Positions 4,013 through 64,000 of a DNA stretch of 64,000 nt are shown here, piece after piece (within the stretch, counting starts at the first letter, position 1; each line of letters opens with the position of its first letter). This DNA comes from Balamuthia mandrillaris (taxonomy: Eukaryota). Made by a program: the position numbers and the translations under genes. The DNA lies in the NCBI GenBank assembly GCA_031835245.2, contig JAVKOQ020000107.1:62001-126000 (forward strand). The letters are read 5' to 3'. The notes under the pieces are model-generated. The model was given only the letters and a program-made list of their open reading frames with translations, did not search any database and was not told the DNA's origin.

Positions 4013-5544
4013 ATGGAGGACGCGGCACAAGCAAGCCTTTCGTCTCCCTCAGGGTCCACCACCACCACCAGTGCTCCCCCTTCCTCGTTGAGTTCGTCTT
4101 CCTCGTCGTTGCCCTCTGTTGGTGCGTTGGGAGCAGCAGCTGGAGGGGCCACCGTTGATGCCGTCATCCAGCAATGGAAAGGTCGGTCAAGCCCTTTTGA
4201 CACGCCCCTCTCCCTCTAACCCATTGCAGCAGGGCCACATTCATTTTTTGTTCTCATTTTTTTTGTTGATCCAACCATAACAGCCTTCAACCTCAATGGC
4301 TCACGGGAACAACTGGACAAGCAAGCGGCAGAGGTCGTCCATAACCAAGACACCAGCTTGGAGTCTCGTAAAAAGCTTGCAGAGGCCACCCGCAGTTCGT
4401 TTTCTCTCCTTCTCTTCTTTCTCGTTGTCTCTGCTTCCTTCTCCCCTCTGTCTCTCTTTGCTTCTCTGCTCTCTTCTCTTCTCCATTTCAGGAACTCATA
4501 TATAAACGACAAAGAATTTAGACAACTGCCTCCTGAAACCAAGTTGAAGAGCTTTGGGTCTCTGCTAAAGTCCTACCAGGAGGAGGTCGACAGGCTCACC
4601 CAACGAGGCAGCTTTGCTGAGAAGGTTTTTCTCACGTTGTATAGGTCGTTGGCAGAGATTGCAGATCCAGTTCAGGCTCTTCAGAGTGCTTTGGTATGAA
4701 CCTTTTTGTAATGTTTTATGGAATGGTTGCAGTCTAATTCTCCTCTTTCTCTTTCTCTTTTTCTTTCGTCGTTTCTCTTTCGTCGTTTCTCTTTCGTCGT
4801 TTCTCTTTCTCTTTCTCTTTCTCTTTCTCTTTCTCTTTCTCTTTCTCTTTCTCTTTCTCTTTCTCTTTCTCTTTCTCTTTCTCTTTCTCTTTCTCTTTCT
4901 CTTTCTCTTTCTCTTTCTCTTTCTCTCTCTTCCTCTCTCCCTCTCTCTTCTTTTTCTGCAGAATGATACAAAGCATGCAGAGAAGTTGGCAGAACAAGAA
5001 CAAGAGAATAAAAGGCTCCAAAGACAGCTACAAGAGTTTCGCAAAGAGTTTCAGGAAGTTCAAAACCAGGAGGTTACCATTCGTAACCTCGAAGAAAAGC
5101 TTCGTAATTATGAAACAAAGGTCTCCTTTTCCTCCTCTTTTCTCTATGCTCTCTTTTTCGTACTCAACGATGACATATACAATGTTATTCACTTGGCTAC
5201 GAAAGACGGAAGAGCTGGTGGCAAGCAGGTTACACAACGCCATCTCTCAAGTACACGAGGAACATCACGCAGAATTGGAATCTATGAGAGAAAGGTTACA
5301 CACAACTGAATTCTTGCCTTCGTCAGTTCTTTTTCTATTTTGATGAGCAAAAATGTTGACGAGGCGACTCTATCTGCAGAGAGGCGGAGCTTACACGACA
5401 ACTGGAACTATCACGGACGGAAGCAGCACACATAAGACGTGCCTACGAAGACACTCAAGCCCAAATATTTGACTTAAAAACGAAACATGGTCTCTTGTTC
5501 TTTCTTTCTTTCTTCTCTTACTCTCTCTGCTCTCTCTCTCTCTT

Positions 5545-45829: not shown

Positions 45830-46070
45830 TCCCGTCGGCTCGACCCCGGTTTTTTTCTTTCTTTACTTTTTTTTTGTGTTTTTGGTTGAAAGAAACTATT
45901 TCACCTTTTTTAGGCAAGAATACCTTTTTAAGGCTATTCATCTGCACAAAAACTGCACAATTATTGTAGTTTTCGAGCACGTTCGTGATCTCTTGCATAA
46001 ATGTTGCTGCCTTTCTGTACGATTTGTGCAAAGGAAAGAGTAGCAAGAAGAAGAAGAGAAGAGAAGAACG

Positions 46071-46874
46071 ATGGAAGAGCTTTTGGCTGGGTACGGCCAA
46101 GAGGGAGAAGAAAGAGAGGAGGCAGACCGACCGGCTGAAGAAGGTCCTCTCCGTGGCGCAACAACAACAACAACGCCCTCCTCAGCCTGCGCAAAGAGAG
46201 GCCTCGCCTCCCAGCTGATCCAGTCGACAGGGAACTCCACCACTGCCCCTCCCATTCGGCCCTACGTCTCCAAACGACAACGCCTCTCCACTCCTTCCTC
46301 TTCTTCCTCTTCTGCTTCCTCTTCTTCTGGCCTCTCCTCCTCCTCTTCTTCTGCTACTCTCTCGGTTGACGTGAGTGTGGAAGCACTTCCCATAAAGCTT
46401 CGACGACTGGTCGTCGGCTCTTGTGCTGATTCTGAGGAGGAGGAGCAATGGAGGAGGAAGAAGAGGGCGCAGCATCGCACAAAACTGCCCAACAAGACCT
46501 CTCCTTCGCTCTTGTTGCGGCAACATGGTGCCGCCGTGAATGTCTTACGCTGGTCCAACCTTACTGGTTTGTGGGTCGTTTCTTTCTTGTCGTTTCTTTC
46601 TTGTCGTTTCTTTCTTTCTTGTCGTTTCTTTCTTTCTTGTCGTTTCTTTCTTTCTTGTCGTTTCTTTCTTTCTCTCTTTCTTTCTTTCTTTCTTTCTTGT
46701 CGTTTCTTTCTTTCTTGTCGTTTCTTTCTTGTCGTTTCTTTCTTTCTTGTCGTTTCTTTCTTTCTTGTCGTTTCTTTCTTTCTTGTCGTTTCTTTCTTTC
46801 TTTCTTTCTTTCTTGTCGTTTCTTTCTTTCTCTTTCTTTCTTGTCGTTTCTTTCTTTCTTTCTTTCTTGTCGTT

Positions 46875-46926
<52 letters not shown>

Positions 46927-48352
46927 TGCTTTCTTTGCTTTCTTTGCTTTCTTTCTTTCTTTGCTTTCTTTGCTTTCTTTGCTTTCTTTGCTTTCTTTGC
47001 TTTCTTTCTTTCTTTGCTTTCTTTGCTTTCTTTCTTTCTTTTCTTTTCTTTTCTTTCTCATTTTTACGTTCTTTTTCATCCCCACAAAACAACAAACAAA
47101 GGAGGGTACTTGGCCTCTGCATCCATGGATGGTACGGTGCGTTTATGGGATGTCTTTCGAGCCAACAAAGCGGAGCAGCGCCCATGCGAGAGCGTTGTTA
47201 TAGCCAGCCATGAAGCTGGCGTGAGGGACATTCAATGGAGTCATGATAATGGTCATCTGTTGTCGGGTGGCTTCGACAAACAAGTTTTACTGACGGACGT
47301 GCAGACAGGCCAGCTTGTTCAGGTTTGACTCTGTTGTTTTTGTTTTGTTGAGTTGTGAACTTCTCTCTCTCTCTCTCTCTCTCTCTCCTTTCTTTGTTCG
47401 TTCACTTACATTACTTCTCTCACACATCAGACTAGCAAACATGAGGAATTTATCACAGGTAATTATCATTTCTTAATCACCCTTATTGTTCTTCTTCATC
47501 CTTTCTCACTTCTTTCCATTTCTCTCAGCATTACGTTACCATCCATCAACGGATGAGAGCAACCTGTTCCTGTGCGGAGGCGCCAAGTCAGGACTCTTTT
47601 GTTGGGATCTGCGAACCACCAAGATGGCCATTCGCTATAAAGGCATTGTGGGACAGGTTCAGAGCCTGGAGTTCATCAAAGAAGGTGAGCAGTTCGTGTC
47701 CAGTGCTGATGTGCTCAAACGCAACTCCGCTGATAAGGGCATCATGGTTTGGGACTTCAAAGCTGTATGTATTCTCTTCTTTCTTCGCCTCCTCTTTTTT
47801 TATTCTCTTTCTCCTATCATTTCTTACATTTACATTATAAGGGCGTGGTGATCTCCAACCAAGTCTATCAAGAAGTGTATACATGCCCATGGCTACGAGC
47901 TCATCCAGATGGGGCGAGCTTCATTGCTCAATCCAACGCTGGGTACATCACCATCTTCTCCACTCAACCGCCATTTAAGCTCAACAAAAGAAAGGTAACA
48001 AACACGTTTAAGAAATTGAATAACAGAAAGAGAAAAAGAAGAGCGGGAAGGAGAGTGAGTGCGAGAGAATGAAGCGACCTGACTATTTCACAAAAAGCGC
48101 TTTGAAGGTCATCAAGTATCAGGTTATCGGATCACCTGTGACATAAGCCCAGATGGAATGTTGGTTGCATCGGGATCGACAGATGGCAAAGTTTATTTCT
48201 ACGATTGGAAGTCATCTGCTATAGTGAAGGTCTTGGCGCAGCCATTCAGCAACACTGCCAACACGGTATGTACTGGCGTTGTCTTTCACCCTTTGTTGCC
48301 GCGCTGCCTGGCTGCATCTGGTTGGAATGGCTCCATCTCCATTTTCGAGTAA
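46071..48352 (+). CDS. WDR25: WD40-repeat protein WDR25-like
   Basis: N-terminal LLAGY..., RPYVSKRQR motif, LASASMDGTVRLWDV, QVYQEVYTCP.LRAHP..FIAQSN, KRKRFEGHQVSGY. Confidence 0.85.
46577..47060. repeat. Intronic minisatellite (TTTCTTTCTTTCTTGTCG-type units, then TTTCTTTGC units) in WDR25
   Basis: Higher-order ~18-nt and 9-nt units built on TTTC. Confidence 0.9.
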
Positions 48353-49134: not shown

Positions 49135-51105
49135 ATGTCTGACTTGATCGCACGCCCCTACACCCAACTCACACAACTGGTGGAGGCCAGGCCGTGGCTG
49201 CGCACTATCCGCAACGTGGTGTTCTACGTGGTGGTCCTTCGCCTCGGCCTCAGCTTCTTCTGGCGGCTGTACGACTGCGGCCCGCGCCGCCTGCTCAGGG
49301 ACCTCAAGAAGTACCTCCTCCTCACCTTCTTCACGCAGGTCAAACGGTTGCCCCTCATCAAAGGGACCATCCAGGGAGAGATCTCAAAGAACATGGACCA
49401 GGTGCGGAAGAGCCTCATCCCGCAGCTGCCGGAGGGCCTGCCGGTCTATAACGAGCTGCCCAAGGAGGGACTCACCCCTGAGGAGATCGAGGAGCAGCTT
49501 AGCATTATGAAGGACATGGGCAAGCACCACTGGCAGGAGGGCAAGATTTCCGGCGCGGTTCGTTTATTGTTTTTATCTCTTCGCTTATTCTTGTTCTTAT
49601 GTTGTCTTGTCTTGTTTTTTTGTTCTTCTTTCTTCTTTCTTCTTTCTTCTTTCTTCTTTCTTCTTTCTTCTTTCTTCTTTCTTCTTTCTTCTTTCTTCTT
49701 TCTTCTTTCTTCTTTCTTCTCTCTTCTTTCTTCTTTCTTCTTTCTTCTTTCTTCTTTCTTCTCTCTTCTTTCTTCTTTCTTCTTATATCCTGTTCCACCC
49801 GGCATTACTTTGCACTTGTAGGTATACCACGGCGGAGAGGACATCACCAAGATCTCAGTACGAGCCTACGAGATGTTCACATGGAGTAACCCACTGCACC
49901 CGGACGTCTTCCCTGGTGTGCGCAAGATGGAGGCAGAGGTGATCGCCATGGTCGTCAAGATGTTCAACGGCAACGAGGAGGCCTGCGGCACCACCACCAG
50001 CGGCGGCACGGAGAGCATCCTCATGGCCTGCCGCGCCTACAGGGAGTGGGGGAAGGCCGTAAAGGGCATTACCAAGCCGGAGATCGTGGTCCCTTCCTCC
50101 GTGCACTGCGCCTTTGACAAGGCCTGCGACTACTTTGGCATCAAGCTCGTTCACGTACCCGTCTCCAAGAAGACGTGGAGCGCCGACATCGAGGCCATGC
50201 GTCGTGCCATCACCTCTAACACGGTAGCTCTTGTGGGCTCTGCCCCAAGCTTCCCTCACGGCACCATGGACGACATTCAAGGGCTGGCCGCTCTGGCCCG
50301 GAGATACAATGTGGGGTTGCACGTAGACAGCTGCCTGGGAGGGTTCTTGGTGCCTTTCATGGCCAAAGCGGGCTACCCTCTGCGTCCCTTTGACTTTAGA
50401 GTGCCCGGCGTGACCTCTATCTCCTGCGACACCCACAAGTACGGCTTTGCTCCCAAGGGTTCCTCCGTCATTCTCTACCGCAACAAGGAGCTGAGGAGCT
50501 TCCAGTACTTTGTGGCTCCCGATTGGCCAGGAGGTATCTACGCCTCCCCAACCATCGCCGGCAGCAGGCCCGGGGCCTTGATCGCCGCCTGCTGGGCCAC
50601 CATGATGTCCGTCGGAGAAGAGGGCTACGTGCGTGCCACTAGGGAGGTCATTGCCAACACCAGAAAGATTGCCACCGGCATCAAGAGCATTCCCGGCTTG
50701 AAGCTCCTTGGGGAGCCGCTGGTAAGCGTGGTGGCCTTCACCTCGGACCACTTTGACATCTACAGATTGGGAGAGGAGATGAACCACAGAGGGTGGAATC
50801 TCAACAACCTGCAGTACCCTTCCAGCATTCACCTCTGCTTGACACCCGCCAACATGCATCGAGCGGATGACTTTGTGGCGGACCTTCAGAGCATTGCTGC
50901 TGAGCTCATGAAGAACCCTGCTGCGAGCAAGGCGCAAGGCGCTGGTGCTATCTATGGCATGTCACAGGCTGTGCCCGACCGTTCCATCATCGACCAAATT
51001 GCCCGCGGCTACATTGATGTTCTTTTCGAAAGCACGGCCTCCTCCTCTGCTGGTTCCTCTTCTGCTGAAGACAGCAATACTTCTAGAAAGGAGAGCAACA
51101 ACTAA
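49135..51105 (+). CDS. SGPL1: Sphingosine-1-phosphate lyase (PLP-dependent)
   Basis: N-terminal TM; WQEGKISGA|VYHG; SNPLHPDVFPGVRKMEAEV; TSGGTESILMA; HVDSCLGGFL; SISCDTHKYG (PLP Lys); one intron at about 49558-49821. Confidence 0.96.
49624..49783. repeat. Pyrimidine-only intronic tandem repeat in SGPL1
   Basis: Repeated TTCTTTC-based units read directly. Confidence 0.85.
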
Positions 51106-51195
51106 AAACGCAAACTTTACAGACTTTGGTTCTATCTTTTTGTTCTTTCTTACACGTGTGTTTCAGTGTGCTTCACGTTTTGTTATTTCTTCATG

Positions 51196-54100
51196 CTATC
51201 GTCTTCCTCCTCTTTTGCCACGGGTAGCAGTGGCTTGCGAGAAGTAAGACTTGCCAGTGGCCAACCGTCCTTTTCCAGCGGCAGCTCTGCCCTTCCGTCC
51301 AAGTCCCGTTCCTCCTTTCTCCTCCTCCACGATCTCCTTCACGACACCAACCACCGCGGTCTGTCCTTGGTCCCTCATGAGGAAGCGTCCCAAGGGAGCC
51401 AGCTCCTGGAAGGTCTCCAAACAAACCGCTCGCCCTCCCTTTGGTCGCATGAGGCAGATGGCGGCCTCCCCCGTGCGAACCTTTTGGGGCTTCTCCTCCA
51501 CCACTTTGCCAGTCCTCTTGTCCAGCTTTTGCAGCAGCTCCTCCACTCGGCAGGGGAAGGAGGCGGTGTGGCAGTAGAGTTGAGGGCAGAAGCCAGCGCT
51601 GATGCCGTTGCTGTGATTGAGGACGAGGATCTGAGCGATGAAGGCCTTGACGGCACGAACGGGTCGGTCGTTGGCATGGCAGGCCACCAATCCGCGGTAG
51701 ACGTGCTCCTTGTAGGGCTCCGGACAGTTCTTGACCTTGAAGCCGATGAGGTCGCCCGGCAGCACCTCCGCTCGGTCCGTGTGATGGATCTGAATGCTGG
51801 TCGTCTGGGCGGTCAGGCCCTCGGGCATCAGCATGAGGGTGTCGTTCTGACGAAGGACACCGCTGGCCACACGACCGACGGCCACCGTTCCAACACCCGT
51901 CACCTTGAAGGATTGGAGAATGGGGATGCGAAGCGGTTTGTCCACCGGACGAACGGGGAGGGAGAGGTTGTCCAGGGCCTCCACCAGGGTCGTGCCCTTG
52001 GCGCCGGTCATGCCGTTGGTCCAACCCTCGTACCAAGGCATGTTCTCGGAGGGATAGATGAGGTTGTCGCCGTGGTAGCCGCTGATAGGGATGAAGACAG
52101 TTCTCTTGTCCTGGACGCCTACCTGTCGGAGGAGGCGCTGGACCTCACCTACAATCTCTTCGAAGCGCTTCTGAGCGTAGCCGACCGTGTCCATCTTGTT
52201 GACCGCCACGATGAAGTTCCTTACTCCCATGGTGTAGGCCACGAGGGCCTCCTCTCGAGTCATGCCCCCTCTGGCGATGCCAGCCTCGAACTCCCCATCG
52301 GTGGCACTGATGACCAAGATGGCCACGTCCGCCATGGAGGCACCCACCGTCATGTTCTTGATGAAAGAGCGATGGCCGGGAGCGTCCAGGAGATCCACGT
52401 CAAAGTTGGGCGTCTCCACGCTCCAACAGCTGACCTCGATGGTCACGCCGAGCTCGCGCTCAGTGCGGAGCTTGTCCATGACCCAGGCGTACTTGGACAT
52501 GGTGTTCTTTCCGGCGGCTCTCGCGTCCCTCTCGTACTTTTCCACTATTCTCTTGTCCACAAAGCCCAACTCGGTGATGAGATGGCCAGAGGTGGTCGAC
52601 TTGCCAGAGTCTACGTTGCCAATGATGACCACGGAGATGCGAGGCTTTCCGGTGACGCTTCTTGCTATTTGCTTGGCCACTGTGTAATGCTCGTCCAAGA
52701 GACGAGCGACCTCGGGGCGTGGAGGCACGAATGCTGCGTACGCTTTGTTGCGCCACTCTTTGGCTGCATTGTACTCTGCCAATTGAGTCTGGTTATAGAA
52801 CGACAGGTCACCAGTCGTTGTGAACAGACAGAAACAAGAAAAAAGCAAAGGAAGGAGAAGAAGAGAAACGAAAAAGATAAAGAAGAGAACGTACAGTATT
52901 CAGCGTTTCAATGAGCTGGTTTGTAGGATCCATCAAAGCACGCACCACGTCGTAATCCAGTCTAAACAGGCCATAGCCATTGGAGGGACGTCCCTTCCAA
53001 TGCCACAGCTTAAACACCGGCAACATCAGTTGCTTCCAGAACCTCTGCCAAAGGACGCGCCCGTCCTCTTTGTTCTTCAGGTCCAAGGTATGACCTTTGC
53101 CGGTCATCGTGTCCCTCACAAAGAGATTGTTGTTGCTGAGGTTGACCTGCAAGGTGCAGTGCTGCTCCGTCTCTTCATCCACCCAGCAGAGCAACGTGTG
53201 AGCAAAAGGCTCCTTGTGTTGGCGAAGCGGCTCCAAGCGAGTGATAACATGCTGCTCGAACTCGTTGGGAGAACGAAAGGCTGCAAAGCTCTCTTTCAGT
53301 TTATCGATGGGATAGGTGGCGATGCAATGCCACACGAAGAACTGCCTTTGGAGGGTCCTCCAGCAGAAGGATGCAGGGAAGGCCACGCGCGTCTTCCTTT
53401 GTACCAGTTCGAAGAAGGTGGAGACGAGGAAAGGGAGCATGCCCTCTTTGGAGAGGAAGAGCAGGACTCGGGATTGTTGTTCTTCCTCCGAGACGTCATC
53501 ATCGTTGAGCAACACCAACTGGCCTAACTCCTGCGCTATACGAAGTGCATCTTCTGGAATCTCTGCTTTGTTTTCTTCCTCCTCTTCTTCCTCCTCTTCT
53601 CCCCCTTCTTTCTTCTTTTCATCAGAAGAAGCAGCAGCAGAAGATGAAGCAGCAGAAGAGGATGTCGATGTTAACTTGACCAAGTTACGCACCAACTGCC
53701 TCAACCACTTGCGAAGCACCATCTGCTCCGCCAACAGCTTCTCCGACAACCCCCTTTGCTGCGGGGGAGCAGCTGCTCCCTTCTTTACCTCCACTTTGCC
53801 CAACAACAGCTTGCAGGACCGGTAAAGACTGACCCTCTGGAGGGCTTCCAGCTTGGCCGCTGCGGGGAACTCTCCATCGAGCAAGGCGTAGGCAAAGGCC
53901 TTGACCGGCATGTACTTTCCGGGAGAGTCGGCCTGTTTGAGGACGCTCCTGCCGTTCACAAGTTTCAGGACAAGTCCCATGGCGTCGTGGTACTTGGGCA
54001 GGGTCTTGGGGTTATCTATCCAGCAGGCCAAGGTGGCCAGGATCTCGGCCATGCGGCTGACGTCCATGCCTGTGGGTGGCCTCTTCTTCATGTGCATCAG

Positions 54101-57100
54101 CAGGAAGCCGATGTAGAGGTTGCCCGTCTCCGTGAGCGGAGCCATCGGCGTGCCGGTCACGAACTCGCTCAGCAGGCCGGGGAGCAGGTTGGAGAGAACC
54201 AGGTTGGAGAGAGGCTCGGGGGCGATGGGCAGGGCAAAGTTGGCCGAGGAGAAGGTGCCTGGCACGCGGACCAAGCTGTTCCCTTCCTTCTCTCCTTCTT
54301 TGTCGGCCAACCGCCAGAACAAACGAAAGTAGGCAAAGGAGGTGGCGTCCGAGCCTCCCTCCACGACGTGCATCATCTCCTTGGAGTTATAGATGAGGCC
54401 GGCTGACTGGTTAGGGGCAATGGTGTAGAGGAAGGCCGGCAGCGTGCTGTTCTCCTGGATAAGCTCCAGCATGGTGGAGAAGGAGAGGGGGTCGCAAAGC
54501 CGCTTGCAAGTCTCGGAGACGTCCTTGGAGAGCGCCACGACAGTGTGCCTGGCCACCACTCGCTCGGCAGGATAGATCTCTCCCAACGTGAGGAGGCCGC
54601 TTCGCTCTCTCATCTCGGAGAGAGCGGTTCTGCCTCCGCCGACCAAACGATAGCGAACGCAAGAGAGGAGCTCTTCTGGGTTGTTCTTGTTGTGGGTGAT
54701 AACTTCCTCCACTAGCTCTGCCTTGGGGAAGAGCTTGCCCTTCTCCATCTCTTCCTTCAACAACCTCTGCAAGAGGGCAGCACGAGCCTCCGCCACGTCC
54801 TTGCCTTCCATGATGAGCAACGTGAGTGTGGTCTTGGGAGGTTCCTTTCCTTCCTCCTCTTCCTCCTCATCCTCATCGCAAGCCAACAGGCAGACGCGAT
54901 GAAGGAGGTCTCTGGCCCATGCTCCCCTCTGTGCTATCAGCCGCTCCACCTGTCGGTCCAGGGTGGACTGGGTGACGAAGCCATGGCCCAGCTGCACCTT
55001 CATGCTCTCCAACCCCGCCGCGATGGCCATCTGCTCCTTCGGGTTGAAGAACTCGGACTGCTTGGCCTGCGTCTTGTCGTAAGAGCCAGCCTCCGTGCGC
55101 AAGTACTGAGCCAACATTCTCTCGAGGGCTTTGGCCTGGGTGTCCACGCTCTCCAAGACCTTCTCAAGGAATGAGCGGAGGGCCACCTTGTTGCGAACGT
55201 GTTGGGCGAGGCTGATGATAGCCTCCATTCTTTGCTGCTTGAGCTGCTCCAAACGTTGGCTGGAGCGCTCCATGCCGCTGGGGCTGATGTCCTGGCCTAT
55301 GGCAGAGAGGAGGCCCTCCAGTTGGGGCTCAAGGCTGAGAATCTTGGCCACGTGCGTGCTAACCTCTTCGGAAAGAACGCTGCTCTCGTGGCTCCTTAAC
55401 CAATACTCTTTCCTCTTTCCGCCTTTGCCACAACGAAGAACAATGCCAGTCTTCTCTTCCGAAGAAGCAGCAGCCGAAGAAGGAGGAGCAACGATCTCTT
55501 CCATGAGGAAAGACCAAGGAAGATGTCCTCTGGCAAAGAGAATGCCTTCCTTGGAGACAGCTGCTGGCACGACGTGCTCGTTGCCCGTGCGAAGACCGTT
55601 GATGGTTAGCATGGTGTTGGTGCCGGAGGCCATCGCCGCCATCTCCCCTTTCAGCCTCTCGATGTCAGCCACCGCGTGAAAGTGTCCGTTGGAGGCCTCT
55701 CTCAAGGCCTTCAACAGCAGGGGATGAGCCTCACCAAAGTGGCAGACGTGAAACTCGAGGGAGCAGCCACCACGGCGATCGCTGCTGTCCTCTTCGCTCT
55801 CATCCTGCAAGCGCTTGCAAGCAGTCTCCAAGTCGCCCACCATCTTCCTTTGGTACTCGGTCAGACCGGTTTGTGGGTCTTCCACGTTGAAGTAGTTGAA
55901 CTTGGGGTCTGCCCTGTTGGAGGGAATGCGCAGCACTTGTTGCTTCGTGAGCGTGCTCTGCAGGTTGCTGGCGTTCTTGTTGATGGCGGAGTGGTCCAAG
56001 CAACGGGTCTCCTCGCCATCCGTCAAGAACCAGACCACCAGGTTGGAGATGCGGTCTCGGCTCCTGAGCTCCTCCATTTGCTGAGCGATGGCAGCCAAGG
56101 CCGCCTCGATGTTGGTCCCTCCCGTTGCCACAAACACGCTCTCATTCGTCTTCTCCCTCAACATTCTCTCCATCTCCTCATCCTCCACAAACTCTTCTCC
56201 GCCCTCCATATCGTCATCGTCCTCGTTCTCCTCTTCCTCTTCCTCTCCGCCTCCTTCCTTCTGCTTATCTCCTTCTTTCTTGCCGTTCTTCTTGGAGACA
56301 TAAAACATATCGGGAGTGAAGGTGATGGGGCGGGAGACGATGTTGTTCCAAACGAGGAGGGTCACCGGGACGCCGTTCTTCAAAGCGGCCATGAAGAAGG
56401 GAGGGATGAGGTCTCTTGCCTTCTTGATGCTGCTATGAGGATGGTCGTTGGACTTGGGAGGGAGGTAGATGCCCTTCTCGTCGTGGTTCATCGAGGCACT
56501 GATGTCAAGACAGAAGATCACATGCGAGCTTCCTCCTTCTTCAGTGTTGCTTCTCAAGACCATTTGTTGTTCTTTCATCGAAGAAGAAGAAGAAGAGGAA
56601 GCATCACCGGTCAACAAGTCGACAGTGGAGAAGAAATGGAGCTTCTTGTCGGCCACCATCGGCACGAACAACAGCTGAGCCTGCTCGCACCACACCTGGT
56701 GCATGCGGGTGAACTGCTTGTGCCGCTCCATCTCCATCTCCGCCGTGTCTCGCTGCTTGAGCAGCGCTCTCTCTTGCTGCTGTTTACGCTCGGCCACGAG
56801 CTCGCTTGGGAGGAGCTTCGTCAGGGCCTCTGTCACGGCACGAAAGAGCTGTCGCTGACGGGCGACTACCGAGTCGTCCCCGCCGCCGAGGAGAATGTCC
56901 TCCAGGGTGTCAAACTGGCGGTCGCTCTCCTCCAAGTCCAGGAGTTGGGCGAGGGAGGTCACCCCCAGGGCGTTGCGGAGGGTGTCAAAGAGGCCCTCCA
57001 CTTCCTCGCGGGTGGCGTCCGGCATGGAAAGGAGGTGCGCTTTGTTGGAAGGGAAGAGGACGGGCAGGAGTCGAGCCGTCTCAGTCTCCTTCGTGAGACT

Positions 57101-57418
57101 CGCTTCCTTCTCTTTCTCTTTTTCAGTTACATTGGTGGTTGTTGTAGTTGTGGTGGTCTTGGTTGCTCCTGTAGTGCTTGCCAGCAAACGAGAGGTCAAA
57201 GCGGCCAGCTCGGTTGACTCGAGAAAGCCGATGGCCACCAGACGAGCCAGCAGCGGAGCCGCTTTGGCCAGCGGTAACGCCAAGACCGGAGCGAGAAGAG
57301 CTTCCTTCTGCTCGTTATAGAAAGGACCCAAGCCGTCCTTCAGGAGTAACAACGCTTTGGCCTGTTCTTCCAGGGATTCGAGGGAGACACTGGCCTCTGG
57401 TTCCCGTGTCCCCTCCAT
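51196..57418 (-). CDS. ~2038-aa fusion: vWA (MIDAS) domain, large uncharacterised region and complete EF-1alpha-like translational GTPase
   Basis: Exon 57418-52895 (1508 codons), phase-0 GT-AG intron 52894-52789, exon 52788-51196. MIDAS: CLDISAS, GGTNIEAAL, WFLTDG. EF1A: GNVDSGKST, ERELGVTIE, DAPGHRSF, NKMD, SGYHG, PLGRF..RD..QTAVVGV. Confidence 0.85.
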
Positions 57419-57673
57419 TCTTCAAGGTTTGTTAGTAAGCTTTGGGCGAAACTAAAGCATTTTTTTTTCTTTTATTGGCTTTATTTCATTTAGGTGAACA
57501 GCACAGCAAAGAGGTTTTTTTTCGTTCTGAAAAATTTCTCGTAATAAAGAGAACGTTTATCGATATTTTTATATTTGTAGACATTTGTTTGAATGGCCAT
57601 TGGTCACTAACTTTAATTGTCGACATCCAAAACGATAAAAAGAGAAGCAGAAAAAACCTGTACAGGGGGAGAG

Positions 57674-57713
<40 letters not shown>

Positions 57714-57764
57714 AGTTTTGGGGAGAATCCAATGGGTTGAAGGTTCGCTGGCCTGCGTTCCTTC

Positions 57765-59210
57765 TCAACTTCCCACTTGCTTTCGGATCTTACGATTCGT
57801 TCGCTCCATTCTCTCATTGTTTTGACGAGAACTATCGCGAACTTTGTCCAACCTGCACAGAAGAAAGAAAGTTATTCATGCGTTTCTTTTGTCGTTTTCG
57901 TTCTCATCTTTTTCAACTTACCTAATATTATGATCCTGGAGCTCGCCTCTTATTTCCAAAGCCATCTCTCCGAGGTCTGACACAAGGTCTCCCAAACGGT
58001 CCAGCGCGCTGTCCGTGTCCTTGATCTTCTGCTGCTTCTCCTCTGACAGCATGCTAAAGTCTGGCTGATATTCCCTGTGATCCTCCTCGCCGCGATCCCT
58101 TGACCGGCCGTGTTGCTTCCTCTGCCGACGGCGTTCCTCCCTCTCGGCCAATTGCTTGTCCTTGGCCTCCGCCTTGCGCAGCTTATCAATCTCCCGGTCG
58201 GCCTTGCGGTTGTTGTCCTTGGCTCTTCCGGAGGAAGTCACATGGTTTGCATAGTAACCGGCCACACTCTCGATACCACGCATGTGGCGGTCGGCCTTGT
58301 CCTGCAGGTGGGAGATATCGTCGAGGTCGCCCTGGATGCTGCGCAGCTGCTTGCCTTGGTGATCCAGTTTCTCCATTGTCTCTGAGCCTATTCTTTTGGT
58401 GTTCTCTGCCACTCGCTATACAGAGGAAGAGAAAGAAAAGCAAGGTAAAACATAAGGCAATAAAGAAAGCTGACAATTTAGTACATACCAAGGCGCGTTG
58501 AACGCTATCATAGGTATCATCAACTACATCTTCTGCTTCTTCAATACTGTTTTGTTATTTGAATTAACTCTGAGAAGGAGTAAAGGAAAAAAAAAAGAAG
58601 AAAAATATCTAGAAAGAAAAAAGAAAGAGAGAGAAAACGAGCACAAGAAGACGTACACTTTCTGAGTTTGTTTAGCCTTTTCAGACATACGACCGCCTGA
58701 TGTCCCTGCCTCCAGCTCTGCAGGCTGGTTCTTGACAGGCGCCCCCTTGGGCAGCACCAAGCCCACCTTCAGCTCCACATTGCCCTGGATCTTGTCCTTC
58801 TTGTTGCCCCTCTCTCCGCCCAGCTTGTACCTCCTGGGCTGGGCGTACTCGAAGCTGGTATTGGCCAGGTCGGCCAAGGCGAGCCTCACCTCCCCAAAAA
58901 ACGTTTGGCTCTTCCTCTTCTTGTGGCCGTTCTCGTCGTAGATCTGGATAAAGACCTCTGTCAGCCTCTTCTGATCCGCCCGCGCTATGGGAAACTCAAA
59001 GGTCTCATCCCACTTGGGGCGGGAGGTGCGGTGCATGACCTTGGTGGTCCGCTCCACGCCGTTGTAGATGACCACGGCAAAGACGTCGCCCCCCATCTTG
59101 GTCTTGGGGTCGCGCTTGGGGACGTGGGCGTGGTAGACGGTCACCTTGAGGGCCATGTAGTCAGGATCCCCTGGGACGGGCTCTGGATCGACTTTCTTTT
59201 TCTTGAACAT
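57765..59210 (-). CDS. C2-domain protein fused to a SNAP-25/Sec9-like Qbc SNARE
   Basis: C2: LKVTVYHA..RD..GGDVFAVV..RTTKV..TSRPKWDETFEF..IQIYDEN..FFGEVRL. Qb: DSVQRALRVAENTKRIGSETMEKLDHQGKQLRSI. Qc: DSALDRLGDLVSDLGEMALEIRGELQDHNIRLDKV..MERTNRKI; stop at 57765. Confidence 0.85.
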
Positions 59211-60076
59211 TTGTTTGTTTTGGGCTGAGATCAAATCAAAAATAAAATCAAATCAAAAAGCGCGTCTCTCTCTCTCTCCCTCTGTGGTGGTTAGGAGGGG
59301 CAAGAAGGAGAAGGAGGAGGGAAGGGGGAGGGAGGGATGGATGCTTGGTTTGTTCTCGCTACGAGTTGCTGCTGCTGCCTCCTTTTTCACTACTTTTTTT
59401 TTTCGTATATTTTTTGTTTGGGGGCTTTGTTGTTGGTTTAAGGTGTTGGAAGTTCGTGACGACGTGACAGTTGACGAAATAAAAAAACCCCGATGCTTTG
59501 GCGGGAAAACTTATGGGGTAGAATCCAGAGAAACAATTGTTGGGGGTTTGGAAGGTCAGCACGTTCTCCCAAGGAGCAACAGGATGCCTAGGACGGCCTA
59601 ACCAAATGATAGCGTTGTGACCAACGATGTGGTGCTGACTTCCTCTTCTCCTTGGGGGACGACCTCTGCCAGGTCATTCTCCCGACCTACGTCCGCCAGA
59701 GATACGGTGTGAGCCCAGACCATTTTTTTTTTGCTCAACGCGTACAGCTACACCTGTTTTCGGCGGGAACAGCGCTACCGTTTCCACCTTCTGCCAGCAC
59801 CACCACAAATCATTTCCCCTGCTAGTTTCAACTCCACTGGGATAATCTGAGTTTGGATGAGGAGTTGCCACTTTTCCCCTCTGGGCAAAAAACCAGCTTC
59901 TCTCTCCGCACAGCGTCCTTCCGTTCACCCAGGCGTCCCGTGCCTGCTAAAAAGCAGTGAAAAAAAAATGTAGTGAGAGAACTTTTGCAAAGTTCAAAAG
60001 CGAAGCGAAACTAAAAAGAAGTAGCAGCAGCAAGAGAGGGAGTAGAACCTCGCTAGTCGGGAGCCTTTGAGGAACA

Positions 60077-60655: not shown

Positions 60656-63600
60656 TCAAGATAAGACATGAAGAAGGAAAGCCACCAACTGCGTGAGGTG
60701 TTCCAGAGCAGAGGCCATTGGCTGTGGAACTTCCGATAGAGCCTTCAGCTTCTGCCGTAAGCCATCCCTATTGCCGCCCCGCACAAGGTATGTCTTACCC
60801 CCTTCCATTGTACATATTACCTCTAATGCTCTCAACGTCTGTTGTCGTAGCAGAACTAAGTTAAAAAAAAAGAAAGAAAGCGAAGGAAGCAACAAGAACA
60901 AAGAGTAGATAACGTACGTGTAAAACAGGAGTAGAGGATGGACTATCTCCACCAGCAGCACGCAGATGCTCCTCGATCGCCTCCTCCGCAGCTTCCACCA
61001 AAGAGTCCACCAAATACTCTCCCTTAGCATCCAACGAAGTGGGCTCTCCTTCAGAGTTCAGCGCCATCACTGTAGCAAATACCTTCTTCACAAATTGATA
61101 ACACGGCTCATCCTCCAAAGGAGAAGTGGCTTTGGGAGAGGAGAAAGTGGAAGTAGAAGTAGAAGAAGAGTCAGGAGAAGGAAGAAGGACGCGCAAGAGA
61201 TAGTCCTGAAGGCGGTGAGGGTTGAGATTGGATCGTAGGCTTTCGGCTACCAATGGTCCTTTGCTGCCGTCCCATGCTTCCTCCATGTGAGCGAATAATT
61301 TAGGGAGATTTCCGGTCAAGTGCACTGTTGACAACAAGAGCAACACTCCTGATAGATTTTTACCAAACAAAAAAATGAGTGTCTGTCCACATACATGTAC
61401 AAAGACGAAAAGAGAGAGAGAGAGAGGAAGCAAAGGCAAACCCAAAGAAGCAGAGGTAGAGGCCAAGATACTATCGTCCTTGAAGCACTGTAGAGCCCTA
61501 GAGAACATGGCAGAGGCAAAAGTGAAGTAGACAGGTTTGCGGTGGGTAGGTCGACGCGAGGAGCTGTTGTCCTGGAGGCTGGTCTGGTCCATGAAGAGGT
61601 TCTTCAGCAGCTGCTCAAGGCAGTGGTTGCTCCGGTCCATACGCACCACCACCTCCAACAGCCTATAGCACTCCAAGAGGACGTCTCCCTCCTCTTTGTA
61701 GGTGTCCGCAATCGTTAACAATGTTGTTACGAAACTGGTCTGTTGTGGTGGAAAAAGATAGAAAAGTTTAAAAAAACGAAATAGAAAGAAAAGAGAGAAA
61801 TGAGAAGGGAAACGGTGGTACCTTTCCTTCCCAAGCTTCAGAGATGGCGAGGGCGCGTTGCAAGCGCTCATCATCAGGTTCAGGCTCTTGGGCCATCCAT
61901 GAGCTCGCTTTGAACATAACCTTAAGGGCGGTGATGATGTCCTGAGGAGTGACAGGATCTTCCCTCTTCAGCGCAGAAGATGCTGATGTGGCAGCTGTAG
62001 TTGATGGACGGCTATTCAAATGCAAAAACTGGGCAACAAAATAAAATGAAGAGTTAGCACATGAACAAGGCACAAGCAGGTCGGAATCTTGGGAGATAAG
62101 ACGTAAGACGTACTCTTGCCAACTGCTGCAAGCCCTGGTTCTCACAAAATACTACAAAATCCGGCTCAGATGCCAATAATACATCATAGTACCTTTTTTT
62201 GTGAATAAGAAAAACACAGTGTCAGAGGGAAGTAATGGAGAAGAAAAAAAGAGAAAGCAAAGAATGAAACGTAAAGAAAGATACCTCAACATGTTGCGGT
62301 GGTTGGTAAGCAATTTGTTGGCTTTGAGAACAACGGGCAAGCGACGAAGTCTATACTCTGGAATGTTTTCCGCGATGACCTTGATGCCAGCAAATATTTG
62401 ATCCGAGGTGCGCGGATAGACATTGGTGTTGACATAGATCTGTGAGGTAGCCCAATCGAGGTTGGTGTGGAAGGCCCACGTCTGCATAAAGGCTTCACTG
62501 CGAACGCAACACAGGTAGAGGATGCGATAGAAGGTGGGGAGAGCTTCCTCGTTGTAGGCGATCATCTTCTCGTTTGGACTGATGCCGGCAAAGAAGTCAA
62601 AGAGACGAGTGGGTAGCGTTGGGCTGGAGGTAATACGGTCTACTGTTCTCTCATCAAGTTCAAGCATCTTCAGCCAGTACTCCATCATGTGCTATTTTTT
62701 GTGACATTTGGTGAAGTCAGTGAACAACGTGCAAGACAGAGAGGGACAAGAAAGGAAAACAAATATTACCAATTTGTTTAGATCACACTCAGTGCGAGGA
62801 CCATCAATGGTTTCGAAGAGCTGAACAAAGGCATCAAAGTGACTAGCGAACTGAAAAAAGAACAGGGATAAGAAAGGAAATATGAGCATAAAGCTAACAA
62901 GTAGAGGGAATGAAAAAAGCAAAACGAACCACTGCAGCATACGGCGGCGAGCGCGCACACCACTTGAGCAGCTTAAAGTAGTTCGTCAGCTTCCAATAAG
63001 TAGTAGGAAAGTTCTCTGGTGACTTTCCAGTTATGAGTGTACTCTCCCCACGAACATGTCGCCTCGCCGTCAATAACAACGACAGCAAGTACTGATAGAC
63101 AGCCAGCAAATGAGAATCAGCGTCGGGAGTCAGCCCGGGCAAGATCTCTCTGTTGGGGTTCTTGGGGTCGACCCTAATGGCAGCCTCTGGCACCAATCCC
63201 ATTACCAAAGACTCCGCAGCCTCCCTCGTGAGATCAGAGCTGTTGGCCATCAACCAGGATTCTACCCAAGAGCCTTTGTTGCGGAACATCCACTCCCTAG
63301 CGAGAGCATTGTGCGGCATGAGGTCGGCCAGGTACTTGACTGCGTAATAGGTGGCCGTCTTGTACTTAAGATTGTTCTTGATGACCACGAGCAGGGAAGT
63401 AAGGGCTTGATCCACACGTGCACCCTGCAGAGAGTCCTCCAGGGCCAAGAGAGGGGTCAGCACATCGAAGTACGGCTGGAAACGGTCATAATCCACCGAG
63501 TCCAATCCTTTGGTGATGATCTCCAGGACATCGTGAGACAACTCCTCGTTCTCCCAACAGATATGCACCAGCACTTGAGCGAGCTCCTTTGAGTTGATGC

Positions 63601-64000
63601 CATCCAACAAGATCTTGGACAGGAAAGGCTTAGAGTAGAGCAGTTCTTTATCGGTGGTGGGTAGCTGAAGAGGAGCGGCCAGGGTGAGCGAGGGAGGAGT
63701 GCCTTTGTCCAGAGGGGCGTCCGTCTCACAAGCCCGTATCAGCTCGCTGAAGAGACTGACCATGAACTCCAACTTGGGAGGATTGCGTTTCTCTCCCATT
63801 TTTGCCCTCTTCTTTTTCTTCTTCTTGGAGCGCTATTCATTGAAAAGAACAGAAAAAATCGGTCAGAAGGACAGACAATAAACTAGAAATGAAGAGGAAG
63901 CATACTTTGGCAAGAGGAGAATCTTCCCCGAGATAAAAGTCTATCAAATACGCTATGACGCCTTGGTCCAACAACAGCTTCTTCTCGTTGGTTCCCAATT
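60656..64000 (-). CDS. C-terminal part of a large USP9X/USP24/USP34-family deubiquitinase; 5' end outside the window
   Basis: HICWENEELS..QPYFDVL..LLALEDSLQ.ARVD resembles the USP9/24 C-terminus; YN...LPTFYRILYLCCVRSEAF...HTNLDWA resembles USP34; the catalytic domain is not in the window. Confidence 0.75.

Follow-up and report, generated by a model that had tools for sequence, protein, structure and literature searches.

eRF3, Hbs1 and EFL are listed as ancient eukaryotic paralogues of the elongation factor eEF1A (PMC4342817), and at least eight eEF1A paralogues are annotated in Balamuthia mandrillaris (bioRxiv 10.1101/2025.02.25.640156). The module of the ubiquitin ligase (E3) UBR4 is defined as a hemiRING-UZI, in which a hydrogen-bond network stands in place of one zinc (PMC10873205). 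We analyzed a 64,000-nucleotide (nt) stretch of B. mandrillaris DNA (assembly GCA_031835245.2, contig JAVKOQ020000107.1, positions 62,001 to 126,000 of the forward strand), referred to as the window. Its reverse strand carries, at 51196 to 57418, a gene in which a vWA module, a long middle region and a complete eEF1A-derived GTPase are joined in one protein of 2038 amino acids (aa), and the same architecture recurs in a conserved amoebozoan family. We propose, at a probability of about 40%, that this fusion protein serves as a GTPase in translation quality control and contains a ubiquitin-ligase module, predicted to be of a zinc-free RING-UZI type.

Structure, expression and distribution of the fusion gene

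An initial annotation of the window had joined two open reading frames (ORFs) through a phase-0 GT-AG intron, and RNA reads confirmed this joint. Splicing of exactly 106 nt (joint 52788/52895) was seen in 14 reads with 10 start places in RNA run X6 and in 4 reads in X7; X8, where 44 reads mapped overall, contained none. A 2115-nt contig from X1 crosses the joint and extends from the GTPase exon to position 54185, linking that exon with the middle region. RNA depth was detected in 30 of 30 bins in X6 and X7. The intron is 76% pyrimidine. As the initial annotation had stated, the EF1A-like part has no Met start of its own, as exon 2 reaches the P-loop before it encodes any Met. The features of the gene are as follows.

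52895 to 57418, reverse strand: exon 1, aa 1–1508 (stop-free reading frame and RNA depth across the exon)
52789 to 52894, reverse strand: intron, 106 nt, phase-0 GT-AG (RNA reads over the joint)
51196 to 52788, reverse strand: exon 2, aa 1509–2038 and stop, 530 aa (translation and RNA)
56714 to 57391, reverse strand: N-terminal part with two small helical domains at about aa 10–80 and 120–235, both conserved (conservation among relatives; site of the 2H phosphoesterase in three of them)
55079 to 56707, reverse strand: vWA set into a beta-sandwich with a helical bundle after it, the arrangement of ArnB and the Sec23/24 core; vWA at about aa 298–600 (AlphaFold2 model, Foldseek, MIDAS)
54524 to 54898, reverse strand: modelled alpha/beta domain, about aa 841–965, six antiparallel strands and a long helix (common-arrangement matches only, Z ≤ 5.4)
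53006 to 54511, reverse strand: most conserved core, about aa 970–1135, and helices that continue to about aa 1471; prediction of a RING-like part free of zinc and a UZI (conservation and VIA match)
51331 to 52647, reverse strand: complete three-domain eEF1A-derived GTPase module, aa 1556–1994 (Pfam GTP_EFTU, D2 and D3; PDB scores; tree)
51199 to 51330, reverse strand: basic C-terminal tail, aa 1995–2038 (short Lys/Arg-aromatic motif near the end of many relatives)

The RNA libraries appear unstranded, and their source alleles differ from the window. With equal sampling, 1543 (X6), 850 (X7) and 44 (X8) reads mapped over window positions 50600–58000. Depth in X8 was 6.9 at the end of the neighbouring gene, against 11.4 and 12.6 in the other two runs, and almost nil over the fusion gene, which suggests that expression of the fusion gene is condition-dependent. 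Of the 40 allele differences listed (180 more are unlisted), 38 fall in coding sequence, where 34 are synonymous. The reads also contained in-frame length polymorphisms of 3–12 nt in Ser-/Thr-rich tracts at window positions 56580–56595 and 57138. The 2038-aa product is identical to B. mandrillaris KAL6063334.1, whose automatic GenBank product name is 'eukaryotic peptide chain release factor GTP-binding subunit' (eRF3). A second GenBank copy (2035 aa) differs from it at 27 residues, none of them within aa 966–1140.

The N-terminal motifs given in the initial annotation, DISAS (305), GGT (433) and TDG (466), are present. The MIDAS (metal-ion-dependent adhesion site) consists of D305, S307, S309, T435 and D467 and is invariant in the family: among the rows covering it, DxSxS was found in 15/15 and the T and D in 16/16. 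Despite a weak Pfam vWA match of the product (E 0.014, under the cut-off), the AlphaFold2 model of aa 130–780 (14 sequences, pLDDT model confidence 77) clearly places this module in the vWA fold. The best Foldseek rows were PitA, ArnAB, a Catenulispora vWA protein, VWA2, ITIH1 and Sec24, with E values of 3e-10 to 1e-7 and low whole-chain TM-scores. The ArnB architecture is common to Sec23/24, and its closest eukaryotic structural relatives are WAV3 E3 ligases (PMC12852372). The core arrangement of Sec23/24 was matched here; Pfam reported neither their zinc-finger nor their gelsolin domain for the fusion protein. In the ESM Atlas, aa 295–1190 retrieved generic vWA clusters only (0.86–0.90). No significant PDB or Pfam match was obtained for aa 1–240, and a SAM- or SHOCT-like reading of this part, suggested by a resemblance, found no support in those searches.

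The initial annotation had treated the locus as a single gene; protein searches revealed a family instead. The architecture was found in eight named amoebozoan species and in unnamed records. The named species are Balamuthia, Pyxidicula operculata, Copromyxa protea, Cavostelium apophysatum, Soliformovum irregulare, Mastigamoeba balamuthi, Mastigella eilhardi and Pelomyxa schiedti, the last two with two proteins each. We take these to represent Discosea, Tubulinea, Variosea and Archamoebae, and this spread suggests that the family arose near the amoebozoan root. Dictyostelium, Acanthamoeba, Entamoeba and Physarum were not among the named matches, and such searches cannot prove absence. With the non-GTPase region as the query, 11 proteins were matched and all 11 carry EF-Tu domains. 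Another search, aimed at long relatives of EF1A, yielded 68 proteins and added three members, with 14 non-self rows matching exon 1; a profile search for the family returned 15 proteins. The GTPase module was present in 17 of the 18 family rows checked, the remaining row being a partial ORF on a 4-kb contig. Metagenomic locus L004 encodes the full architecture in one intronless 1996-aa ORF, and EukProt transcriptome ORFs from five named amoebae are full-length fusions; the fusion is therefore independently proven. An artefact of assembly or gene modelling that joins two genes, a possibility raised with the initial annotation, is contradicted by the spliced reads, by the intronless L004 relative and by the presence of both parts in 17 of the 18 rows, and its probability is practically negligible.

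An exhaustive profile search, for which 150 of 159 matches were listed, gave at least 145 new rows. Among the matches listed, 131 of the 145 were shorter than 400 aa and the GTPase module was reached in 10 of 147 rows tested; one weak row was a bacterial vWA protein. Pattern scans for relatives of the middle region confirmed none of 63 viral and none of 103 prokaryotic candidate stretches, and of 54 candidates in the scan for vWA, 2 were weak, generic vWA matches from viruses. EF1-family GTPases were observed on 29 viral contigs (L006–L034), and six placed in a tree grouped with eEF1A (two) or with a Durusdinium protein inferred to be EFL (four). Viral EF1A/EFL ORFs stand alone in 27 of the 29 loci examined, with G1 at most 18 aa from the Met in the 25 loci where it was found; a viral source of the fusion is therefore unsupported. 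Protein P0241, linked to MMETSP, is a divergent member of 2160 aa in which D replaces the catalytic His and the P-loop pattern in its standard form is not matched (P0241 and P0102 come from MMETSP and JGI). The family may reach beyond Amoebozoa. P0099 (JGI, 938 aa) contains the vWA and core and no GTPase, possibly because of a gene-calling break. Separately, a 1.6-kb contig in the Devosia marina genome record (L037, 117–1427) encodes an eEF1A that groups with a beetle sequence (support 99) and is a probable contamination; L040, in a Kribbella record, may be similar.

An eEF1A-derived GTPase with a remodelled aminoacyl pocket

The C-terminal module has a G domain with G1–G4 and beta-barrels II and III, as expected of the EF1 family. 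The motifs reported in the initial annotation were all located: GNVDSGKST (1565), GVTIE (1622), DAPGH (1643), NKMD (1705), SGY (1744) and PLGRF (1973). In PDB searches the Balamuthia module scored 480 bits with eEF1A, 398 with archaeal EF1A (aEF1A), 300 with HBS1L and 283 with eRF3a, and the family profile scored 650, 552, 408 and 393 bits, respectively. Because eEF1A outscores eRF3a in both, the GenBank name eRF3 is wrong. The product name and the complete three-domain module would agree with a canonical eEF1A or eRF3 that merely bears a long extension. This reading is highly improbable, since the profile favours eEF1A over eRF3a, the EF-1alpha model TIGR00483 gave a score of 477 (cut-off 540), 89 of the 148 positions invariant in eEF1A and aEF1A are kept, and Balamuthia already has its own set of annotated eEF1A paralogues.

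We constructed a careful tree from 34 of 66 rows under LG+C20, a selection free of eRF3, GTPBP1 and amoebozoan eEF1A rows and with the EFL label inferred. The 13 fusion rows formed one clade (100/100), sister to eEF1A (98/92), and the Hbs1, EFL and fusion rows were each separate clades at 100/100. Simpler models supported the eEF1A sister position with 87 (50 rows) and 75. In approximately unbiased tests, placing the clade as sister to Hbs1 (p 0.29), to EFL (p 0.31) or to archaea (p 0.45) was not rejected. Identity of the G domain within the group was 0.50 for the fusion family and 0.80 for eEF1A, indicating much faster evolution of the former. A derivation from eEF1A rather than from eRF3 or Hbs1 is supported, in line with the earlier view that the C-terminal part looks EF1A-derived.

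Residues of the GTPase module were counted in 16 family rows and are numbered by their eEF1A equivalents. The GTP machinery is retained (GKST, DxPG and NKMD in 16/16, H95 in 15/16). R37, E48, S53 and H95 are described as ribosome contacts (PMC5119991). Position 37 is R, H or K in all 16 rows, position 53 is S or T in 14, and H95 is retained. E293 and H296, described as residues of the A76 pocket (PMC12775451), are kept in 15 and 14 rows. K100 and R322 are present in 16/16. We assign these two to binding of the tRNA 3' end by analogy with EF-Tu. Hbs1 rows have P at position 100 in 13/13, and H296 and R322 are outside the four commonest letters there. The tRNA-end pockets of eRF3 and Hbs1l are described as not conserved (PMC5119991).

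Several positions weigh against the proposed quality-control role. H15 is kept in 3/16 rows, D97 in 3/16, Q132 in 0/16 and H136 in 0/16 (E in 14), and these four are otherwise invariant in eEF1A, aEF1A and Hbs1 and nearly so in EFL. E48 is mostly lost in the fusion family, and it is also variable in archaea and Hbs1. In the Balamuthia protein itself, E293 is replaced by Q and one extra residue is present near S53, and P0241 has D in place of the catalytic His. Q251/D252, E268 and N307 are changed as well, the commonest letters at 252 being K, N, R and Q. In eEFSec, changes in the aminoacyl pocket set cargo specificity (PMC5059743). The aminoacyl pocket of the fusion GTPase is remodelled, as read from the alignment. 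The retained residues suggest that this GTPase still grips the tRNA end and can meet the ribosome, though not as a general elongation factor. That the fusion protein acts on tRNA or ribosomes is probable.

The changed positions could be explained differently, by a GTP switch independent of the ribosome, in which the Sec23/ArnB-like module or the core would be a built-in GTPase-activating or nucleotide-exchange factor and the protein would work as a cytoskeletal or membrane scaffold. CysN is a parallel for an EF1-type GTPase that was repurposed. Changes shared across the family at H15, D97, I103/T104, Q132 and H136, which lie around P-loop, switch II and helix C, and the resemblance of the N-terminal fold to the Sec23/24 core would fit. 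This explanation is quite unlikely against the retention of R37, S53, H95 and the A76-pocket residues, and against RNA-end enzymes of the 2H type that were inserted twice.

The 2H phosphoesterase (PF13563, E 8e-22 to 5e-30) was detected in four of eight proteins scanned, near the N-terminus in P0096, P0097 and P0098 and just before the GTPase in P0224. 2H enzymes act on cyclic-phosphate RNA ends, for example of tRNA cut during ribosome rescue. Two separate insertions suggest RNA-end handling. Against this, the domain was seen in only these four relatives, and both HxT motifs are clear in P0224 alone, the other three having one. The same four proteins have GDVD at the P-loop.

The initial annotation had also suggested that the protein might be an integrated decoy or sensor directed at pathogens whose enzymes act on eEF1A. 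Position 53 is S in 11/16 rows, and its loop is a target of bacterial glucosyltransferases. The run nearly devoid of fusion expression, with the neighbour still expressed, looks like regulation, and an E3-like module could act as the output. Such a decoy is improbable. The fusion is old and keeps a fixed architecture in amoebae that are distant from one another, its catalytic motifs are preserved, synonymous changes make up 34 of the 38 listed coding differences, and the Balamuthia loop has its insertion beside S53. Pfam scans of the fusion protein detected no NLR or sensor domain.

The middle region and its predicted likeness to the UBR4 module

The middle region had been left unassigned. This stands for profile and Foldseek searches, and a structural match now qualifies it. 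Outside the GTPase, aa 970–1135 are the most conserved block, with conservation equal to that of the G domain and with D976, Y998, R1032, N1060, P1064 and H1109 invariant. The model of aa 767–1508 (742 aa, mostly helical) had a pLDDT of 68, with aa 992–1096 below 50. In an exhaustive VIA search of 48,161 chains, the sole row with Z ≥ 8 was 8btl_A, the UBR4 hemiRING-UZI E3 module, at Z 10.2 (root-mean-square deviation (rmsd) 4.5, 219 residues, 10% identity, chain range 4866–5183); the next chain was at Z 5.4. True pairs of UBR1–3 and UBR4 UZI domains are reported at Z 6.6–8.0 and rmsd 3.8–4.2, and the resemblance of UBR4's zinc finger to a RING is described as not evident from its sequence (PMC10873205). 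D976 (17/17), S979 (16/17), R1032 (17/17) and W1035 (15/17) are conserved with spacing 3/53/3, compared with 3/46/3 for the UBR4 ligands C4838, C4841, H4887 and C4890. This register was set manually, aided by U-box and UBR patterns. We somewhat favour a relationship of the middle region to UZI.

The assignment has weaknesses. It depends on a single structural row, obtained with the low-confidence stretch left in the model, and, according to the warning of the VIA tool, common arrangement alone can bring helical models to a Z of about 13, a range that includes the 10.2 seen here. The RING-like part (aa 992–1096) is the one at pLDDT below 50, and the first two zinc ligands of UBR4 lie outside the aligned range 4866–5183. 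Foldseek of the middle model against BFVD and PDB gave no match at E 0.001. Sequence profiles against PDB and Pfam matched no UBR or U-box protein, and none was among the checked long rows of the exhaustive profile search. No conserved zinc-ligand set was found in aa 960–1215; the region would therefore be at most a zinc-free, U-box-like derivative of the UBR RING. For aa 780–1508, the ESM Atlas gave no usable match. Complex prediction of the vWA, core and GTPase module without alignments yielded no usable complex (score 0.00).

An alternative is a specialised tRNA-handling or ribosome-rescue GTPase devoid of ligase activity, whose middle region would be a scaffold, a dead E3 fold or a chance helical likeness. 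It would share the retained tRNA-end and ribosome residues and the 2H insertions, and the missing sequence-level E3 signal and zinc ligands agree with it. We consider it unlikely, though the most serious competitor, because the UBR4 row stands 4.8 Z units over all other chains and the strongest non-GTPase conservation coincides with the expected site of a RING-like E2 surface. An active ligase in a quality-control role is itself a tentative proposal, which we would not yet assume.

Proposed function and comparison with known systems

For the quality-control GTPase with a built-in ligase module, the following sequence of events can be envisaged; gene structure, expression, conservation and the integrity of the motifs are observed, and all that goes further is prediction. 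In its GTP state, the eEF1A-derived module would bind a tRNA 3' end through the equivalents of E293, H296, K100 and R322 and dock on the ribosome through those of R37, S53 and H95. Because the aminoacyl pocket is changed, the module probably carries not an ordinary aminoacyl-tRNA but an unusual one, whether deacylated, damaged or peptidyl. The core at aa 970–1471 would bind E2~ubiquitin and mark a target close by, such as the nascent chain, a ribosomal protein or a factor that has stalled. The vWA MIDAS may capture an acidic residue of a partner, either an adaptor or an extracting ATPase, and in some relatives the 2H phosphoesterase may trim cleaved tRNA at its 2',3'-cyclic phosphate. In its fullest form the proposal is of an ancient amoebozoan single-chain machine, in which the GTPase recognizes tRNA ends that are aberrant when ribosomes stall and directs an E3 of a new, fully zinc-free RING-UZI class at the stalled complex, the MIDAS recruits a partner, and 2H repairs the tRNA end in some lineages. 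This full version is speculative and unlikely to hold in every part. A role in quality control had been raised in the initial annotation; it gains support from the retained ribosome and tRNA-end residues, the 2H domain of relatives and the predicted E3-like middle region.

No described protein with a vWA-EF1A architecture was found in the literature searched, in agreement with the earlier claim; subscription papers, supplements and pairings of EF1A with E3 or 2H were outside the scope of this search. The main text of two surveys (PMC4342817 and PMC6514570), as far as it was available, contained no mention of vWA. The family adds another conserved lineage to the EF1 family, its architecture was absent from that literature, and its gene models are already in databases under automatic names (eRF3, EF-1alpha), which have hidden it across distant amoebozoan groups. 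The GenBank name needs correction, and the gene represents parasite-specific biology in Balamuthia. If the fold match is true, a translational GTPase and a ubiquitin ligase would be fused, adding a zinc-free RING-UZI member and tying tRNA sensing to ubiquitylation in a single polypeptide. With an active ligase, the fusion would be categorically new.

Several genes flank the fusion gene in the window. At 49822–51105, on the forward strand, lies a gene of the pyridoxal phosphate-dependent decarboxylase fold (PF00282), which we take to be sphingosine-1-phosphate lyase-like; it is convergent with the fusion gene, with stop codons about 90 nt apart. A C2-domain and SNARE-like gene occupies 57850–59252 on the reverse strand, and its 69-nt intron at 57850–57920 is spliced in the RNA reads. 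Exons with DUF3517, a domain typical of large ubiquitin-specific proteases, are located at 62155–63832 (reverse strand). An intron-split gene at 46044–48352 (forward strand) shows WD40-like repeats by eye; one piece was scanned and gave no Pfam match.

Among described systems, eEF1A and aEF1A are nearest in sequence and share with the fusion protein the three-domain module, the G motifs, the catalytic His and the A76-pocket residues. The fusion protein differs by its 1555-aa N-terminal extension, whereas stand-alone eEF1A is about 450 aa. Hbs1/Ski7, eRF3, EFL and GTPBP1 are likewise repurposed EF1-family GTPases at the ribosome, a location that is inferred for the fusion protein, and Hbs1, eRF3 and GTPBP1 also have N-terminal extensions. 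Unlike Hbs1, the fusion protein keeps the tRNA-end residues, and it forms a clade separate from the Hbs1 and EFL rows. The UBR4 hemiRING-UZI and UBR1–3 RING-UZI modules resemble its core by the predicted fold match and a similar spacing of invariant residues, but the fusion protein has no zinc ligands, UBR box or profile-level similarity, and identity is 10%. ArnB/VWA2, the Sec23/24 core, ITIH and WAV3 share the insertion of the vWA into a beta-sandwich, the helical bundle that comes after it and a complete MIDAS. In contrast to these ArnB/Sec23-type modules, no zinc finger or gelsolin domain was seen in the fusion protein, and its vWA is joined to a translational GTPase.

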